A stretch of DNA of 6,420 bases, taken from IMG/VR virus record IMGVR_UViG_2675903352_000008; one strand, 5' to 3'. Position numbers and translations under genes: made by a program. This DNA is from a virus (lineage: Duplodnaviria; Heunggongvirae; Uroviricota; Caudoviricetes). Positions 46 through 5,760 of this stretch are shown here, piece by piece. Numbering within the stretch: position 1 is the stretch's first letter; each line of letters opens with the position of its first letter. The notes under the pieces were generated by a model, which saw only the letters and a list, made by a program, of their open reading frames with translations, had not been told where the DNA came from and did no database searches.

Positions 46-411
46 ATGACTGAACGCATAGAATTTGTTTTGCCTTACCCGCCGACGGTGAATACTTACT
101 GGCGACGTCGTGGCAACACATATTTTGTGTCAAAAGCCGGTGAGCGTTATCGCCGTGATGTGGCGCTAATTGTTCGCCAGCAGCGGCTGAAATTAAACCT
201 GTCCGGAAGGCTGGCGATAAAGATTATTGCAGAGCCACCGGATAAGCGCCGTCGTGACCTGGACAATATCCTGAAAGCACCACTGGATGCGCTGACGCAT
301 GCCGGACTTCTCATAGACGACGAGCAGTTTGATGAAATCAATATTGTGCGCGGTCAGCTCGTTCCTGGTGGGCGGCTGGGGATAAAAATCACAGAACTGG
401 AGTGCGCATGA
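46..411 (+). CDS. rusA: Holliday junction resolvase RusA (crossover junction endodeoxyribonuclease)
   Basis: 121-aa ORF. Size, the RRDLDN acidic motif and overall similarity to E. coli RusA as recalled from memory; sits at the classic position just upstream of Q. Stop TGA 409-411 overlaps the next ATG (ATGA). Confidence 0.85.
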   Translation: MTERIEFVLPYPPTVNTYWRRRGNTYFVSKAGERYRRDVALIVRQQRLKLNLSGRLAIKIIAEPPDKRRRDLDNILKAPLDALTHAGLLIDDEQFDEINIVRGQLVPGGRLGIKITELECA

Positions 412-1097
412 ATAGCCAGTATTTACAGTTTGTGCGTGAGCAGCTCATTATCGCCACCGCTGATTTGAGTGGGGCAACAAAAGGTCAGCTTGAAGCCTGG
501 CAGGAGAATGCCATGTTCGATACAGGGCGTTACAGGCGTAAAAAAATCCGGTACCGGGATGAGGTGACTGGAAAAATGATAACGCGGGATAATCCACCAA
601 TCCCGGGAAAACAATCACTGGCGAAGGGGACGTCAATTCCTCTGGTCAGTCCGGTTGAGTTTTCGACATCATCGTGGCGGCGGGCTGTTCTGTCTCTTGA
701 AGAACATCATAAAGCCTGGTTGTTGTGGTGTTACAGCGGGAATATTTGTTGGGAATATCAGATCGCGATAACACAGTGGGCGTGGAATGAATTTAATACT
801 CAATCCGGTACCAGAAAAATTGCAGGGAAAACGCAGGAACGCCTGAAAAAATTAATCTGGCTGGCGGCGCAGGCAGTAAAAGCAGAACTTTTTGGTGGGG
901 AAGGTTATGAATACCAGGAGCTGGCATTACTGGCGGGAGTGACAACTAAAAACTGGTCCAAAACATTTACTCGTCACTGGGTTGCAATGAAACACATTTT
1001 TTACCGACTGGATAGTGAGGCTTTATTGTTTGTAATGAGAACACGTTCAAAACAAAAGGTGGCATTTTCAAAGCAAAGTGTTGCAAAAGTAGATTGA
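408..1097 (+). CDS. Putative late-gene antiterminator (Q-like), family unassigned
   Basis: 230-aa ORF starting at ATG 408 (GGAG at 399-402, 5-nt spacing), overlapping the rusA stop. Assigned by synteny: immediately after rusA and immediately before a strong promoter, a terminator and the lysis genes. Trp-rich with only 2 Cys, so no lambda-Q-type Cys4 zinc finger. The track start at 402 is an in-frame GTG with no better RBS. Confidence 0.55.
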   Translation: MNSQYLQFVREQLIIATADLSGATKGQLEAWQENAMFDTGRYRRKKIRYRDEVTGKMITRDNPPIPGKQSLAKGTSIPLVSPVEFSTSSWRRAVLSLEEHHKAWLLWCYSGNICWEYQIAITQWAWNEFNTQSGTRKIAGKTQERLKKLIWLAAQAVKAELFGGEGYEYQELALLAGVTTKNWSKTFTRHWVAMKHIFYRLDSEALLFVMRTRSKQKVAFSKQSVAKVD

Positions 1098-1109
1098 AAG
1101 GCATATATT
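1081..1109 (+). promoter_or_regulatory. Putative late promoter (pR'-like): TTGCAA-N17-TATATT
   Basis: -35 TTGCAA at 1081-1086, 17-bp spacer, -10 TATATT at 1104-1109; predicted start near 1116. Overlaps the last codons of the Q-like gene. A -10-like TGATATTTT at 1121-1129 lies in the initial transcribed region, where a sigma-dependent pause element would be expected. Confidence 0.5.
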
Positions 1110-1184: not shown

Positions 1185-1207
1185 TACGTGATGGCAAAAG
1201 CAAACAA

Positions 1208-1232
1208 AACCCGCCCACAAGCGGGTTTTTTT
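1208..1232 (+). terminator. Rho-independent terminator (tR'-like) ending the short late leader
   Basis: Stem AACCCGC (1208-1214) / GCGGGTT (1221-1227), loop CCACAA, followed by a run of 7 T (1226-1232). Confidence 0.8.
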
Positions 1233-1314
1233 GTGCCACTTATCTCGGATAGATATGGTGAATGCGCTGGTGGAGGAAGTAAGGGTGATTTTTAATCAGG
1301 TGATTTTTGAATGC

Positions 1315-1343
1315 TTGCAACATTGATTTCGTAACGTTATTAT
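1315..1343 (+). promoter_or_regulatory. Putative sigma70 promoter of the tRNA array: TTGCAA-N17-TATTAT
   Basis: -35 TTGCAA 1315-1320, 17-bp spacer, -10 TATTAT 1338-1343, GC-rich discriminator CCTGCACCC, predicted start 2-3 nt before tRNA 1. Upstream AT-rich direct repeat GGTGATTTTT x2 (about 1284-1308) resembles an UP element. Confidence 0.5.
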
Positions 1344-1352
1344 CCTGCACCC

Positions 1353-1428
1353 GGCCCTTTAGCTCAGTGGTGAGAGCGAGCGACTCATAATCGCCAGGTC
1401 GCTGGTTCAAATCCAGCAAGGGCCACCA
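1353..1428 (+). tRNA. tRNA with anticodon CAU, ileX/ileZ-like (tRNA-Ile2 lysidine type, or Met)
   Basis: 76-nt cloverleaf: acceptor GGCCCTT/AAGGGCC, D-loop with GG, anticodon loop CTCATAA, T-loop TTCAAAT, encoded CCA. Strong similarity to E. coli ileX as recalled. Confidence 0.85.
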
Positions 1429-1429
1429 A

Positions 1430-1506
1430 CCGCCACTAGCTCATCAGGAAAGAGCGTCAACCCTTTAAGTTGAGTGTGCGAGGTTCGAGTCCCCGGTGGC
1501 GGTCCA
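1430..1506 (+). tRNA. tRNA-like gene with atypical anticodon loop CCTTTAA (formal anticodon UUU, C at position 33)
   Basis: Perfect 7-bp acceptor stem CCGCCAC/GTGGCGG, D-arm GCTC/GAGC with GG in loop, anticodon stem TCAAC/GTTGA, T-arm CGAGG-TTCGAGT-CCCCG, discriminator T, encoded CCA. Only the anticodon loop is non-canonical. Confidence 0.6.
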
Positions 1507-1508
1507 GT

Positions 1509-1584
<76 letters not shown>

Positions 1585-1587
1585 TAT

Positions 1588-1662
<75 letters not shown>

Positions 1663-1769
1663 GTATTTATCTGCATATTTCCTTTTGAGTCCCGTTTTGT
1701 TAGAGGTATTGGGCTGTTGACGGGGCTGATATCCACTCTCCACCTTTCAGGGAGATAGGATTTAAGGAG

Positions 1770-1807
1770 CCAACCGGTTAGAGTCTGCTTTGTTCCTAAC
1801 CAGTTGG
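1770..1807 (+). other. Inverted repeat / hairpin between the tRNA array and the 3' end of the convergent moron
   Basis: CCAACCGGTTAG (1770-1781) pairs with CTAACCAGTTGG (1796-1807), 11 of 12 bp, 14-nt loop, then T-rich TTATGTTATTTGAG. Could terminate tRNA-array transcripts before they run antisense into the moron. Confidence 0.3.
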
Positions 1808-1825
1808 TTATGTTATTTGAGATGG

Positions 1826-2389
1826 TTAGTTTTTATTCGCCGTCCATTTACCACAAATTGGTCTGGAGAAGATTGCCAGAATGGCAATAAAGGATATTTC
1901 AATTGAAACAGACCAGCATATATGTCCAATCAGTTCGCTCCAGAATTCATAGCCGTTTAGATTCCATAGCCACCCTCTTTCATGGCCGGGAAGATACGCG
2001 GGAAATCTGAAGCCCAGTGCGGGTATTAAAATACCATGCATGACTAATGTAATAAGAATTCCATATACAGCCCCATACCACATGCGGACTCGTGGAATAA
2101 AAACAGACAGGTATATGTATACAAAGGCAAAAATGAAACTAAAAAGCCAATGATAGAGCATAACAGCTCCGGGAATTGTTACTCCCTGGTAAATGTAATC
2201 CAGCGAGTGTGAATTTATTCCCAGAAAACCCAACCAGGCGTCGATATTCATTGCTGGTGGAGAAATTTCTCCGGCCATTCTTGGGGGCATGTTAGCTTCA
2301 GTTCCTGATTTCACCAGAGAGCTGATCGCGCCACCGACCAGTGTTGCCCAAAGTATGATTTTTAGATTTACACTATTCCATTTACACAT
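1826..2389 (-). CDS. Inner-membrane protein moron, about 4 TM helices, possibly DUF1440/YagU-like
   Basis: 187-aa ORF from ATG 2389..2387 with a strong SD (AGAGG, 6-nt spacing) to TAA at 1826-1828. Four hydrophobic segments. Motifs (VKSGTEANMPPR, SELIGHICWSVSIE) resemble my recollection of YagU/DUF1440, but this is unverified. Transcribed opposite to the late operon. Confidence 0.7.
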   Translation of the reverse strand: MCKWNSVNLKIILWATLVGGAISSLVKSGTEANMPPRMAGEISPPAMNIDAWLGFLGINSHSLDYIYQGVTIPGAVMLYHWLFSFIFAFVYIYLSVFIPRVRMWYGAVYGILITLVMHGILIPALGFRFPAYLPGHERGWLWNLNGYEFWSELIGHICWSVSIEISFIAILAIFSRPICGKWTANKN

Positions 2390-2672
2390 AAACAACCTCT
2401 TGTTTGTTGGGTTGGGGTTATCATACATGACTGCTTGTTGCGATTTTGTATTGTAATGTTTCTGTTTATTGTCTTTTGTGTTGTTTGTCTCTTTAGTGTT
2501 CAGTGTGTGACTATGTACACTCTGTATAGTGGGGGCTCCCGTTGGTGCAGAGAATAACGAAATCTGAAAATAACCGTTTTCAGTTGTGGCGCTCGCAACA
2601 AAAGCGCATGCTGACTGTGCGAAGATAATCTCGCTGTGACGAGTAATCTCGAACGTCATTGTTTTCATTTAT

Positions 2673-2699
2673 GCCAGCTACCCAAAGCTGGCTTTTTTT
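2673..2699 (+). terminator. Rho-independent terminator, plus orientation
   Basis: Stem GCCAGCT (2673-2679) / AGCTGGC (2686-2692), loop ACCCAA, then 7 T (2693-2699). Confidence 0.7.
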
Positions 2700-2702
2700 G
2701 AG

Positions 2703-2725
2703 GTCTGCTCCGGCAGGCTTTTTTT
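2703..2725 (+). terminator. Second tandem rho-independent terminator, plus orientation
   Basis: Stem GTCTGC (2703-2708) / GCAGGC (2713-2718) with one G-U pair, loop TCCG, then 7 T (2719-2725). Confidence 0.55.
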
Positions 2726-2743
2726 ATTCCGGCATATATAACT

Positions 2744-2920
2744 ATGGAGTATTGCGACAACCTGATAAAAGTCTGCATATCGCGATCCAACGGTAGAAGC
2801 GATAAACGGGCTGAGCGATATGTTTCCAGAGGAGAAGAGGTTGAGCGATACGAAGAAACAGCTAAGTATATTAAGAGAATGTTAATGTGCTTCATTGCTG
2901 ATCAGAAGCTATCGGGATAA
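2744..2920 (+). CDS. Hypothetical small protein (58 aa), not in the ORF track
   Basis: My own translation, ATG 2744 to TAA 2918-2920: MEYCDNLIKVCISRSNGRSDKRAERYVSRGEEVERYEETAKYIKRMLMCFIADQKLSG. Charged and hydrophilic. No clear SD upstream, so weakly supported. Confidence 0.2.
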   Translation: MEYCDNLIKVCISRSNGRSDKRAERYVSRGEEVERYEETAKYIKRMLMCFIADQKLSG

Positions 2921-2940
2921 TCATCAGTTTTTTGTATTGA

Positions 2941-2963
2941 GGCTCGCTACGGCGGGCCTTTTT
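2941..2963 (+). terminator. Terminator-like hairpin, plus orientation
   Basis: Stem GGCTCGC (2941-2947) / GCGGGCC (2952-2958) with one G-U pair, loop TACG, then TTTTT (2959-2963). Confidence 0.45.
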
Positions 2964-3043
2964 CACATCCGCGTCACGCCCGGCGCACATCACATCAGAT
3001 AACGCTATACAAAAGGCATCTTCGGGTGCCTTTGATGGGGGGG

Positions 3044-3065
3044 CGGGCCGCTGGTGGCTTTTTTT
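3044..3065 (+). terminator. G/C-rich element followed by a T7 run immediately upstream of the holin RBS (weak terminator-like)
   Basis: GC-rich GGGGGGGCGGGCCGCTGGTGGC followed by TTTTTTT (3059-3065). Only a short stem can be drawn, so assignment is tentative. Confidence 0.3.
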
Positions 3066-3104
3066 GTTTCCATTACACAGCACCCGCATCAGCGAGGTGG
3101 GGTT

Positions 3105-3320
3105 ATGAAATCCATGGATAAGTTAACAACGGGTGTCGCCTATGGCACCTCAGCAGGTAGTGCCGGGTACTGGTTTTTACAGTTGCTCGATAAAGTCACG
3201 CCCTCACAGTGGGCGGCAATAGGTGTGCTGGGTAGTCTGATATTTGGCTTGCTGACGTATCTGACAAACCTTTATTTCAAGATTAAAGAAGATAAGCGTA
3301 AGGCTGCGAGAGGTGAATAA
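3105..3320 (+). CDS. S: Phage-21-type pinholin/antiholin (S21-like), 71 aa, dual-start motif MKSM
   Basis: SD GAGGTGG upstream of ATG 3105; second in-frame ATG at 3114 gives the Met4 (68-aa) form. Sequence [26 protein letters not shown]...[16 protein letters not shown] closely matches S21 as recalled. The track start at 3054 lacks an RBS. Stop TAA overlaps the R start (TAATG). Confidence 0.9.
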
Positions 3321-3817
3321 TGTCGCCATCATTACGCAAGGCTGTTGCTGCTGCTATTGGTGGTGGGGCTGTTGCCATAGCGTCTGTGCTCATCACTGGT
3401 CCGAGTGGTGACGATGGTCTGGAAGGTGTCAGCTACATACCATACAAAGATATCGTTGGCGTATGGACTGTATGTCACGGACACACCGGAAAAGACATCA
3501 TTCCCGGTAAAACGTATACCGAAGCAGAATGCAAAGCCCTCCTGAATAAAGACCTTGCCACGGTCGCCAGACAAATTAACCCGTACATCAAAGTCGATAT
3601 ACCGGAAACAACGCGCGGCGCTCTTTACTCGTTCGTTTACAACGTGGGTGCTGGTAATTTCAGAACATCGACGCTTCTTCGCAAAATAAACCAGGGCGAT
3701 ATCAAAGGCGCATGTGATCAGCTACGGCGCTGGACATACGCTGGCGGTAAGCAATGGAAAGGACTGATGACTCGCCGTGAGATTGAGCGTGAAGTCTGTT
3801 TATGGGGGCAACAATGA
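3320..3817 (+). CDS. R: SAR (signal-anchor-release) endolysin, T4-lysozyme-type muramidase (R21-like)
   Basis: 165 aa. N-terminal Gly/Ala-rich weakly hydrophobic segment [18 protein letters not shown] typical of a SAR domain, followed by an E-(8)-D-(5)-T catalytic arrangement ([18 protein letters not shown]). Matches R21 as recalled. Start overlaps the S stop. Confidence 0.9.
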
Positions 3818-4281
3818 GCAGAGTTACCGCGATTATCTCCACACTGGTTATCTGCATCATCGTCTGCCTGTCGTTGGCGGTCAATCATTACCGTGATAAT
3901 GCCATCGCCTACAAAGAACAGCGTGATAAAAAAGTCAGTGAGCTGAAGCAGGCGATCGCCACCATCGCTGACATGCAGCAGCGTCAGCGTGATGTTGCTG
4001 CGCTAGATGCAAAGTACTTGAGAGAATTAGCCAATGCGAAAGCTGAAAATGAAACTCTGCGCGCTGATGTTGCCGCTGGTCGTAAGCGCCTGCGGGTCAA
4101 TGCCAGTTGCTCCGCAGCCGTGCGTGAGGCCACCGGCCCCACCCGCGTGGATAATGCAACCAGCCCCCGACTGGCAGACACCGCTGAGCGGGATTATTTC
4201 ACCCTCAGAGAACGGCTGATGACAATGCAAAAGCAACTGGAAGGGGCACAGGAATATATCCGTACCCAGTGTATACCGTGA
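3814..4281 (+). CDS. Rz: Rz i-spanin (inner-membrane spanin subunit)
   Basis: ATG 3814 overlaps the R stop (ATGA) with a G-rich SD upstream. N-terminal TM segment [18 protein letters not shown], then charged coiled-coil-like periplasmic region. The track start at 3802 is an alternative in-frame ATG. Confidence 0.85.
4034..4219 (+). CDS. Rz1: Rz1 o-spanin (outer-membrane lipoprotein), fully nested in Rz in the +1 frame
   Basis: 61 aa: signal peptide with lipobox LVVSAC, proline-rich mature domain ([16 protein letters not shown]), nested inside Rz; the hallmark Rz/Rz1 arrangement. Confidence 0.75.
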
Positions 4282-4746
4282 TGTTTTGTTATAAAGGTGT
4301 TGATGGTTGTGTTAGGGGGGATTTAACAAAAAGCCAGTTCCGGACTTTATAGTGTGCTCAGATCATGGCCAAAAACGATTTCTGTGATAAATATTTTGAA
4401 TATTATTTACAGGTAAATGACGTGGGTCGCATGAATGAAAATATTACAATAGAGTATTAAGTATATGTTCATATTGTATGGGCTGAGAAGGCAAAACACG
4501 GTAATTCCTTATGTTGCTATGATACTTGATTGGCAGAATAGTTATTTGGTCTTGAGTATATAGTCAGCGTTTTTTGTTCAGTAATAGTTCTTTCAGTAAA
4601 AAACAATAAATAGCGTGATTATTTCTGTTTGTTATTTATATTTTTGTTTGTTGTTTTATTGTCTTTCTGTGGAGGGGGGAGTATTGTTCCCTTATTAAGG
4701 GCAGGTAAATTTAGAATGGTAATCTGTAGATAATTGGAGGTCACTT

Positions 4747-5061
4747 ATGCTACATGATCACCTGGCTGAATGTCTGGAGAAAAAAGGACTGTACCGGAGA
4801 GCGGCTGAACGATGGGCAAAAGTGATGGTACAGCTAAGTGATGATCAGAAAAGAAAAATCGCGGCACAGAAACGAGCAGAGTGTTTGCGTAAGGCGCGCC
4901 GGACTTCGGTTGCACCGGTGAATCTGACAGAAATAAAGCAAGCGGTCAACAGACTACATTCTGAGTTGGGAATGGGATTTGAAGAGCGGCGGATATTCCG
5001 ACGATATAAAGGGACAGGAGAACAGAATACGTCCGGAAACGCGCGGTCAAAAAAATGCTAA
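4747..5061 (+). CDS. PerC/Pch-family small transcriptional regulator (prophage moron)
   Basis: 104 aa. SD GGAGG (4736-4740) 6 nt before the ATG. N-terminal motif LEKKGLYRRAAERWAKVM resembles the PerC-family signature as recalled; basic C-terminus. Preceded by about 460 bp of AT-rich DNA. Confidence 0.55.
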   Translation: MLHDHLAECLEKKGLYRRAAERWAKVMVQLSDDQKRKIAAQKRAECLRKARRTSVAPVNLTEIKQAVNRLHSELGMGFEERRIFRRYKGTGEQNTSGNARSKKC

Positions 5062-5096
5062 AAAATATCTGAGAAAGTTATTGCCTGTTACCATAA

Positions 5097-5125
5097 TAAA
5101 AAGCGACTTTAGTAGTCGCTTTTTG
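5097..5125. terminator. Bidirectional rho-independent terminator after the PerC-like gene
   Basis: Perfect stem AGCGACT (5102-5108) / AGTCGCT (5114-5120), loop TTAGT, flanked by an A-run upstream and a T-run downstream. Confidence 0.75.
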
Positions 5126-5564
5126 TGTCATATATACGTCGTTTAAGTAAACCTGTCTGAACAGGTGCTCTGGTCGTGTTTGTTTTTGTTGGGTACAAAT
5201 TGAGAATGTTTTTCATTAATTAGTCTTCTTCAGCAGACTTCAATAATCCACGCTGAAAAAATTCCTGAACCTTTCTGACCAAAAGCGATGTTAATTTGTT
5301 CAATCATCTGGTTTGGAAATCGGATGTTGAGGGCTGTTGTTCTGCGGGTTCTGTTCTTTGATGACATAATGTTGCCCCATATTCAGTGTTGCTGGTTTGT
5401 ATTTTCTGAAGTTGCTTTTACGTTAATTTGATGTGGATCAATTGATGCAATGCCTGCGTCATAATTGATCATTTCTTGTGGTTAGATTGCGTACACACAC
5501 GTTCTGATGAGTCATCATGCAGATGATAACTATTCTCATTTTTTGTGGGTCCTTTCCGGCGATC

Positions 5565-5760
5565 TGACAGGCTACGGGGCGGAAGGCGCGCGGATTTTCG
5601 CTATTTATGAAAATTTTCCGGTTTAAGGCGTTTCCGTTCTTCTTCTCCGTAACGTCATGTTTTTATTTAAAACCCCCCCTGAAAAGAAAGGAAACGACAG
5701 GTGCTGAAAACGGGCTTTTTGGCCTCTGTCGTTTCCTTTCTCTGTTTTTGTCCGTGGAAT
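5565..5760 (+). other. Lambda-type cos site: cosN (variant 12-mer at 5577-5588) plus cosB with Nu1/IHF-binding elements
   Basis: Near base-for-base match to the lambda genome ends as recalled (right end ...CCGGTGATCCGACAGGTTACG, left end GGGCGGCGACCTCGCGGGTTTTCGCTATTTATGAAAATTTTCCGG...). Here the cosN-equivalent reads GGGCGGAAGGCG. Inverted R-element pair GAAAGGAAACGACAG / CTGTCGTTTCCTTTC is conserved. Confidence 0.8.

Follow-up and report, generated by a model that had tools for sequence, protein, structure and literature searches.

Between the antiterminator gene Q and the lysis genes of a lambdoid prophage lies a series of hairpins that, as read from the sequence, did not arise as a unit but is what remains of three or more accessory-gene modules, of which two are truncated and one is missing. 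The stretch of DNA analyzed (6,420 nt, hereafter the window) represents the late regulatory and lysis region of such a prophage, according to gene calls and Pfam matches. The best explanation, which we hold to be probable, is that these hairpins are intrinsic terminators inherited from morons that underwent insertion, replacement or truncation in the interval from Q to the lysis cassette, combined with a mechanism in which the lysis genes are insulated by way of Q. Morons are accessory genes with their own promoter and terminator that lie between phage genes, and they were first described for HK97 and HK022. The interval between Q and S is a classic moron site, the morons located there carry their own terminators, and downstream terminators are read through under Q (PMC8065619; Tree et al. 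2014). The segment 2400-3120 as a unit was present in 1 of 5426 complete E. coli genomes and also in a few IMG/VR prophage contigs.

The layout of the window is that of a Q operon, in which Q is followed by a promoter-like site, a promoter-proximal terminator-like hairpin, and then the lysis and packaging genes on the same strand (Table 1). Downstream of essD the plus strand carries a lysozyme gene annotated rrrD, Rz/Rz1, a PerC-family gene and the gene for the small terminase subunit. For typing of the Q protein, a search against solved structures returned no informative match. The promoter scans were simple consensus searches, with match numbers about equal to those in shuffled sequences; no sigma-70-like site was found by them on the plus strand between 1603 and 5069, so the lysis genes appear to be without a promoter of their own. 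The promoter-like site ahead of the tRNA genes is a possible source of transcription not modified by Q. The long hairpin at 1770-1807 may terminate transcripts arriving both from the tRNA cluster and from the yagU gene, and it may already halt much of the transcription from the tRNA promoter ahead of T1. The yagU gene is the sole intact moron near the terminator stack.

Table 1. Features of the window, in order of position.
Feature	Position	Strand	Description
RusA	46-411		First gene in window order
Antiterminator Q gene	402-1097		Intact; full-length PF06323 match, E = 1e-91
Candidate late promoter pR'	1081-1109	+	TTGCAA-17-TATATT, overlaps Q gene end; consensus scan
tR'-like hairpin and T7	1206-1236	+	dG -12.4; would be first terminator past candidate pR'
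Promoter-like site	1315-1343	+	TTGCAA-17-TATTAT, 10 nt upstream of four-tRNA cluster; consensus scan
Four tRNA genes	1353-1662		Directly after the 1315-1343 promoter-like site
Long hairpin	1770-1807	+	dG -13.1, tail TTATGTTA; between tRNA cluster and convergent yagU 3' end
yagU-family (DUF1440) gene	1826-2389	-	Convergent with tRNA cluster
Gene A remnant	2536-2566	+	Last ~10 codons and stop TGA 2564-2566; alignment to E. coli 2015C-4136CT1
Gene A 3' untranslated tail	2567-2672	+	Alignment
T1	2673-2699	+	Stem G2673-C2692, 6-7 bp, loop 6-8 nt, T7 at 2693-2699, dG -11.5 kcal/mol
T2	2700-2725	+	Stem 2700/2702-2719/2721, UCCG loop, T7 at 2719-2725, dG -12.4 kcal/mol
Gene B 3' fragment	2732-2920	+	ORF 2744-2920 = C-terminal 58 residues of 173-aa E. 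coli GE3 protein
T3	2941-2963	+	7-bp stem 2941-2958, UACG loop, T5 at 2959-2963, dG -13.3 kcal/mol
TerB/DUF3927 moron site, left flank	2964-2994	+	Comparison with related loci
Small hairpin	2971-2986	+	dG -7.4, without U tract; in the 2964-2994 left flank
TerB/DUF3927 moron site, right flank	2995-3043	+	Holds UUCG hairpin 3012-3033 and G7 run 3035-3041
UUCG hairpin	3012-3033	+	9 bp, dG -11.4 kcal/mol; followed by GAUGGGGGGG
Last terminator	3045-3067	+	Stem 3045-3060, three G-C pairs and G.U pairs, T7 at 3059-3065, dG -5.1 kcal/mol
essD, phage-21-type class II holin	3105-3320	+	PF04971; Met1/Met4 dual start

Other features flank the stack on both sides. A -10-like sequence (TGATATTTT, 1121-1129) was noticed by eye in the presumed early transcribed region, and within the presumed short leader RNA, from the candidate pR' to the tR'-like terminator, a perfect 9-bp tandem repeat (ATTTTGCCG, 6.7 copies) occupies 1125-1184. 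The leader-RNA region of related phages aligns over 228-242 nt compared with 288 nt in the query, so the copy number of this repeat probably varies. Of the tRNAs, two lie at 1353-1428 and 1430-1506; the first tRNA, which has a CAT anticodon, is called Met by ARAGORN and tRNA-Ile, presumably of the lysidine type, in the RefSeq homologue; the tRNA-Lys(TTT) of the cluster has a low score (44 bits). On the other side, a hairpin at 3083-3116 overlaps the essD Shine-Dalgarno sequence (CCCGCAUCAGCGAGGUGGG) ahead of the Met1-Lys-Ser-Met4 dual start, a combination that we take to resemble the way in which the S gene of phage 21 controls holin and antiholin through a dual start. In 4747-5127, the PerC-family regulator gene (PF06069) lies between the Rz and terminase genes, is followed by a terminator-like hairpin and T run at ~5099-5127, and looks like another moron whose terminator is still present. 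A long inverted repeat (5682-5745; GAAAGGAAACGACAG ... CTGTCGTTTCCTTTC) is placed just upstream of the small terminase gene, where cos is expected.

On their anatomy, T1, T2 and T3 are predicted to be strong, compact intrinsic (Rho-independent) terminators. The pairing of T1 reads GCCAGC(U)-loop-(A)GCUGGC followed by U7, and that of T3 reads GGCUCGC-UACG-GCGGGCC followed by U5. These three have a GC-rich stem of about 5-10 bp with a short loop, whereas the stem of the last element reaches only -5.1; at least five U in the 8 nt directly 3' of the stem are found in T1, T2, T3 and the last element but not in the UUCG hairpin, which is not a canonical terminator because it has GAUGGGGGGG and no U tract behind it. 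The last terminator is weak here, and its version in related phages (GGGCCGCUGGUGGCCC) attains dG -9.4. An earlier note on this DNA had listed five elements, and in a check of the sequence all of them were located where it had placed them. It had described two strong adjacent hairpins, which agrees with the energies and U7 tracts of T1 and T2, and an extra stem with a UUCG loop, which is indeed there with 9 bp. Its two further terminator-like elements fared differently, given that T3 is strong and the last one weak; of the five elements, no more than three are thus strong terminators. This point is absent from that note, as are the mosaic origin of the stack and the possible earlier stop at 1770-1807.

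The number of these sites was compared with chance expectation using two scans. A loose consensus scan listed T1, T2 and the last element and missed T3; over the whole window it gave 9 sites against 6.8 +/- 3.0 in shuffled sequences, which is not above chance. With a strict scanner (compact hairpin of <=26 nt, dG <= -8, >=5 T among the next 8) the plus strand of the window yielded 4 sites, namely the tR'-like site at 1210, T1, T2 and T3, and the minus strand a single one, which is the same tR'-like hairpin read in reverse; 120 dinucleotide shuffles gave on average 0.37 sites per strand. None of these shuffles placed three sites within 400 bp, the maximum being two (in 4/120). The stems hold G.U pairs, which are A.C mismatches on the minus strand, and no hairpin has a T-rich tail on that strand, so the plus orientation proposed before for all the elements is real. 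When the ~730 nt preceding the holin gene were examined in 30 distinct related loci, a mean of 2.2 plus-oriented and 0.3 minus-oriented compact terminators was obtained, and therefore serial plus-oriented terminators before the lysis cassette recur in this prophage group. RefSeq carries a minus-strand 'hypothetical protein' over window 2892-3089 (4493-4675 of locus L001), spanning T3, the UUCG hairpin and the last terminator; it is very likely spurious since it sits wholly over conserved plus-sense hairpins.

Comparison of related sequences points to the hairpins being maintained as RNA. In eight variants of the T2/T3 hairpin, 100% of the cells were paired, as against 30-57% in slid controls, and the variants include compensatory changes from C-G to U-A at two pairs, wobble changes at three, and six different tetraloops; this pattern suggests selection on the structure of the plus-sense RNA. 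The T1 stem is invariant in six homologues (72-100% identity), the loops of which differ in sequence and length, and a C2678T variant (loci L023 and L025) retains a G.U pair. The UUCG hairpin and the last hairpin are retained by one-sided wobble changes with almost no further covariation. From 11 variants of the leader, RNAalifold predicted separate hairpins only, with a covariation term of -0.64 kcal/mol and one pair changed on both sides. Four of the related loci (L003, 2700-3000; L054-L056, 1620-2800) have 0.4-1.2 kb without annotation between the last tRNA and the holin gene; in these stretches there are conserved hairpin and T9 terminators (AACCGCC...GGCGGTTTTTTTTT) with compensatory variation in their stems, and these are candidates for undescribed small RNAs.

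As in other lambdoid prophages with morons, each terminator of the stack can be assigned to a module that is intact elsewhere. Gene A is intact in E. coli 2015C-4136CT1 (L053; CDS 2036-2530, 164 aa). Given that its stop codon there corresponds to TGA 2564-2566, the segment 2567-2672 is the 3' tail of gene A, and T1 and T2 are its terminators. Homologues of the segment 2536-2731 occur in 13/5426 complete E. coli genomes, and a search of the phage database with 2551-2731 gave no match. No convincing promoter was found within 2551-2672 or 2964-3011 by manual and automated searches. T1 and T2 are two full terminators placed essentially back to back, like the tandem terminators that close strongly expressed operons, for instance T1-T2 of rrnB; in contrast with these, the gene served by the pair has been deleted in the window, and related loci share the T2 position with other modules. 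In E. coli E9 (L002), the T1-T2 pair is joined without a gap to what stands behind T3 in the window, and a different holin gene comes next.

The second module is represented by 2732-2920, which aligns with the C-terminal part of a protein of 173 aa encoded by E. coli GE3 (L052), with 69% identity (E = 8e-27). The intact gene B precedes the T3 hairpin in GE3, and T3 can be assigned to gene B as its own terminator; elsewhere, the T3 hairpin ends an AraC-family moron and other modules. ORF 2744-2920 was considered as a real small gene and rejected, since it has neither a Pfam match nor a Shine-Dalgarno sequence and aligns to the C-terminus of a longer protein; it is a gene stump that is probably not expressed. 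A repeat search revealed that T2 and 2932-2963 form a 32-nt direct repeat (75% identical) flanking this stump. The position of the T3 hairpin after gene B in GE3 implies that T2 and T3 are two alleles of one terminator, which were paired up when the stump was joined behind T2.

The third module is absent from the window. A TerB+DUF3927 moron splits the leader of the holin gene in phage vB_Apl-pPE4 (L051) and in GE3, and the right part of this leader, from the UUCG hairpin onward, comes after DUF3927 genes in many genomes, that of ETEC H10407 among them. The joined form, as found in the window, is complete in 109/5426 genomes, and a leader of ~110 nt is kept upstream of two unrelated holin types; a literature search with the exact sequence of the conserved leader retrieved no paper. 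The conserved left edge of the essD module (~680 genomes) starts at the T tract of the last terminator. Phage Ayreon has a different stem at the essD junction, which its annotation gives as the terminator closing a methylase moron. On this comparison the last terminator is best described as a hybrid hairpin that marks the junction of leader and essD module. The G7 run at 3035-3041 is G8 in the near-identical prophage of E. coli 377323_2f, where slippage or a sequencing error is possible. The vB_Apl-pPE4 record (PP818812.1, 'Actinobacillus phage vB_Apl-pPE4') has at 1760-2600 a series of elements (T3 hairpin, TerB/DUF3927 moron, leader and holin) that are ~90% identical to those of E. coli lambdoid prophages, and its assignment to an Actinobacillus host looks doubtful.

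A gene that is missing from relatives at the same site and that brings its own terminator was thus found three times: gene A in 2015C-4136CT1, gene B in GE3, and TerB+DUF3927 in vB_Apl-pPE4 and GE3. In contrast with these morons, the window keeps of gene A ~10 codons and of gene B 58, and its TerB/DUF3927 site is empty. Between 2536 and 3043 there are only stumps instead of an intact, expressible coding sequence with a promoter, and no promoter-like site; for this reason the modules are remnants of morons and not morons, and since the genes are gone or truncated the terminators of the stack are orphans.

The most likely function of the stack is to shield the lysis cassette from any polymerase that lacks the Q modification, with the Q-modified polymerase from pR' reading through, and it probably holds the lysis genes silent until Q permits this read-through. 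A polymerase without Q, coming from the promoter-like site of the tRNA genes or from any moron promoter, would meet three strong terminators and a weak one serially, and would stop before the holin gene; a Q-loaded polymerase from pR' would ignore both the tR'-like site and the stack and would transcribe the lysis genes into essD. This role, which the earlier note had already proposed and which is reasonable and conventional, fits the context, that is, an intact Q, promoter-like and tR'-like sites after it, the promoter-like site of the tRNAs, and no plus-strand sigma-70-like site in 1603-5069; it also agrees with textbook accounts of Q antitermination and of moron terminators (PMC8065619). 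Because the 1770-1807 hairpin may stop tRNA transcripts, the stack may be partly redundant for this particular source. In the course of moron turnover, deletions of the coding sequences would be survivable, whereas deletions of terminators would risk leaky lysis; selection against leaky lysis could thus explain that the terminators outlive their genes.

Similar elements are known in other phages. The tR' terminator of lambda and the pR'-tR' region upstream of stx in 933W and H-19B are also intrinsic, oriented with late transcription and located between Q/pR' and the lysis genes, and the window, like them, has a Q gene with a promoter-like site and then a tR'-like hairpin behind it. In contrast to a promoter-proximal tR', the stack is placed 1.5-1.9 kb downstream, past the tRNA cluster and the inverted yagU gene; it also differs from tR' of the lambda type in that four or five elements stand in series, and Q read-through is here inferred.

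A different role, compatible with the explanation given above, would be that the hairpins and the conserved box TCCGCGCCACGCCCGGCGCA mainly serve as shared boundaries at which modules are swapped by homologous recombination. We regard this as possible, although doubtful as the main role. The hairpin and box stand behind at least four unrelated modules, among them gene B and an AraC-family gene as well as the tail of gene A and a tRNA-distal segment without coding sequence, and ahead of two different ones (the holin leader and the TerB moron), the direct repeat formed by T2 and T3 flanks the gene B stump, and the essD junction falls exactly in a shared GGTGGC(C)-T tract. Nonetheless, common descent together with module exchange would give shared boundaries anyway, and the junction of T2 and gene B, where ATTCCG is joined to GCATATATAAC, looks like an illegitimate join that does not lie at the shared box. 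A stronger proposal, to which we give a low probability, is that the T2/T3 hairpin plus the TCCGCGCCACGCCCGGCGCA box is a portable cassette boundary at which morons are preferentially exchanged, the terminators being always kept through selection against leaky lysis; if this were true, terminator stacks would record past moron turnover.

The persistence of the terminators could also be neutral rather than selected. The terminators would then be debris that works biochemically, while the tR'-like site and the lack of promoters keep lysis off. Each element can indeed be traced to a neighbouring module, the full arrangement is confined to a single complete E. coli genome among the 5426, and the last terminator has decayed in the window. 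This is nevertheless unlikely, considering that the T2/T3 stem stays paired in 8/8 variants through compensatory and wobble changes while the loops drift, that a strong orientation bias holds across 30 loci, and that the terminators have outlasted the deleted coding sequences that they served.

Another reading, quite unlikely in our opinion, is that at least one hairpin terminates a gene for a small regulatory RNA, for example one yielding an RNA from the 3' tail 2567-2699. In prophages of pathogenic E. coli, the Hfq-binding RNAs PasD, AgvB and AsxR are encoded in the interval from Q to the lysis genes. Small RNAs are thus documented at this position in EHEC and EPEC prophages, and those of the Q-S interval (AgvB, AsxR, PasA, PasC, PasD, STnc100) share with the stack not only the neighbourhood but also GC-rich hairpins and long U tracts; T1 has a long U tract like those of Hfq-binding RNAs. 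PasD1 in particular has the late-operon orientation and lies near a class II holin gene, ~400 nt upstream of it in E2348/69, and its terminator (GGCTGCGCATGGCGCGGCC) resembles the hairpin at the T3 position of locus L045. In contrast, AgvB, AsxR and PasA are antisense to late transcription, unlike the plus-oriented stack. The stack itself has neither a sequence or covariance-model match to these RNAs nor a promoter-like site, in agreement with the absence of plus-strand sigma-70-like sites from 1603 to 5069. The search with all 4227 Rfam families (window at E <= 1, ten related loci at the gathering score) matched only tRNAs and sok; apart from a chance match to rsmX at 2862-2962 (E = 0.38, 23 bits against a gathering score of 56), no family was found in 2551-3068 at E <= 1, and none at the gathering threshold in the ten loci. 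The covariance models of AgvB (RF02702), AsxR (RF02703), STnc100 (RF02076) and Esr41 (RF02676) had no match in the window or in the related loci. PasA, PasC and PasD1 of EPEC E2348/69 were placed by means of RIL-seq coordinates, and when the PasA and PasD1 regions were read by eye no similarity was seen; the Pas RNAs were therefore discarded as homologues of any element of the stack, the PasD1 terminator being only loosely like the L045 hairpin. The gene A tail element is rare (13/5426 genomes), and its 5' stem-loops are not kept in divergent homologues. The CA-rich stretch 2986-3011 was also considered as a GcvB sponge, that is, an AgvB-like mimic, and rejected: shuffled leaders paired equally well with K-12 GcvB in 13% and 41% of cases, and better scores were obtained for many other segments of the window. 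A further possibility, of low probability, is that read-through or processed RNAs between the terminators are stable Hfq-binding RNAs of an undescribed family.

Finally, it is very improbable that 2964-3104 is a structured cis-regulatory leader of the holin mRNA (attenuator, thermosensor or riboswitch-like), in spite of its conservation ahead of two unrelated holin types and in 109 genomes and of its three hairpins and conserved single-stranded CA-rich stretch, given that RNAalifold found only separate hairpins with little covariation, that the sequence consists of two moron-site flanks joined together, that Rfam has no match to it, and that the predicted pairing with GcvB does not set the CA-rich stretch apart from shuffled sequence.

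The explanation by inherited moron terminators has some practical consequences. In annotation, ORF 2744-2920 should be read as a gene stump, and the 'hypothetical protein' called on the minus strand is almost certainly spurious; in searches for prophage small RNAs, orphan terminators can mimic small RNA genes; and in prophage engineering, deleting the region could give leaky lysis. A terminator stack is a known kind of feature, and what is known of Q antitermination and of terminators is unchanged by it; the added insight is that past moron turnover is preserved in the stack as in a fossil record. At the sequence level, the region shows clearly how a moron site situated between Q and the lysis genes can evolve, in that coding sequences turn over while terminators pile up ahead of the holin gene.
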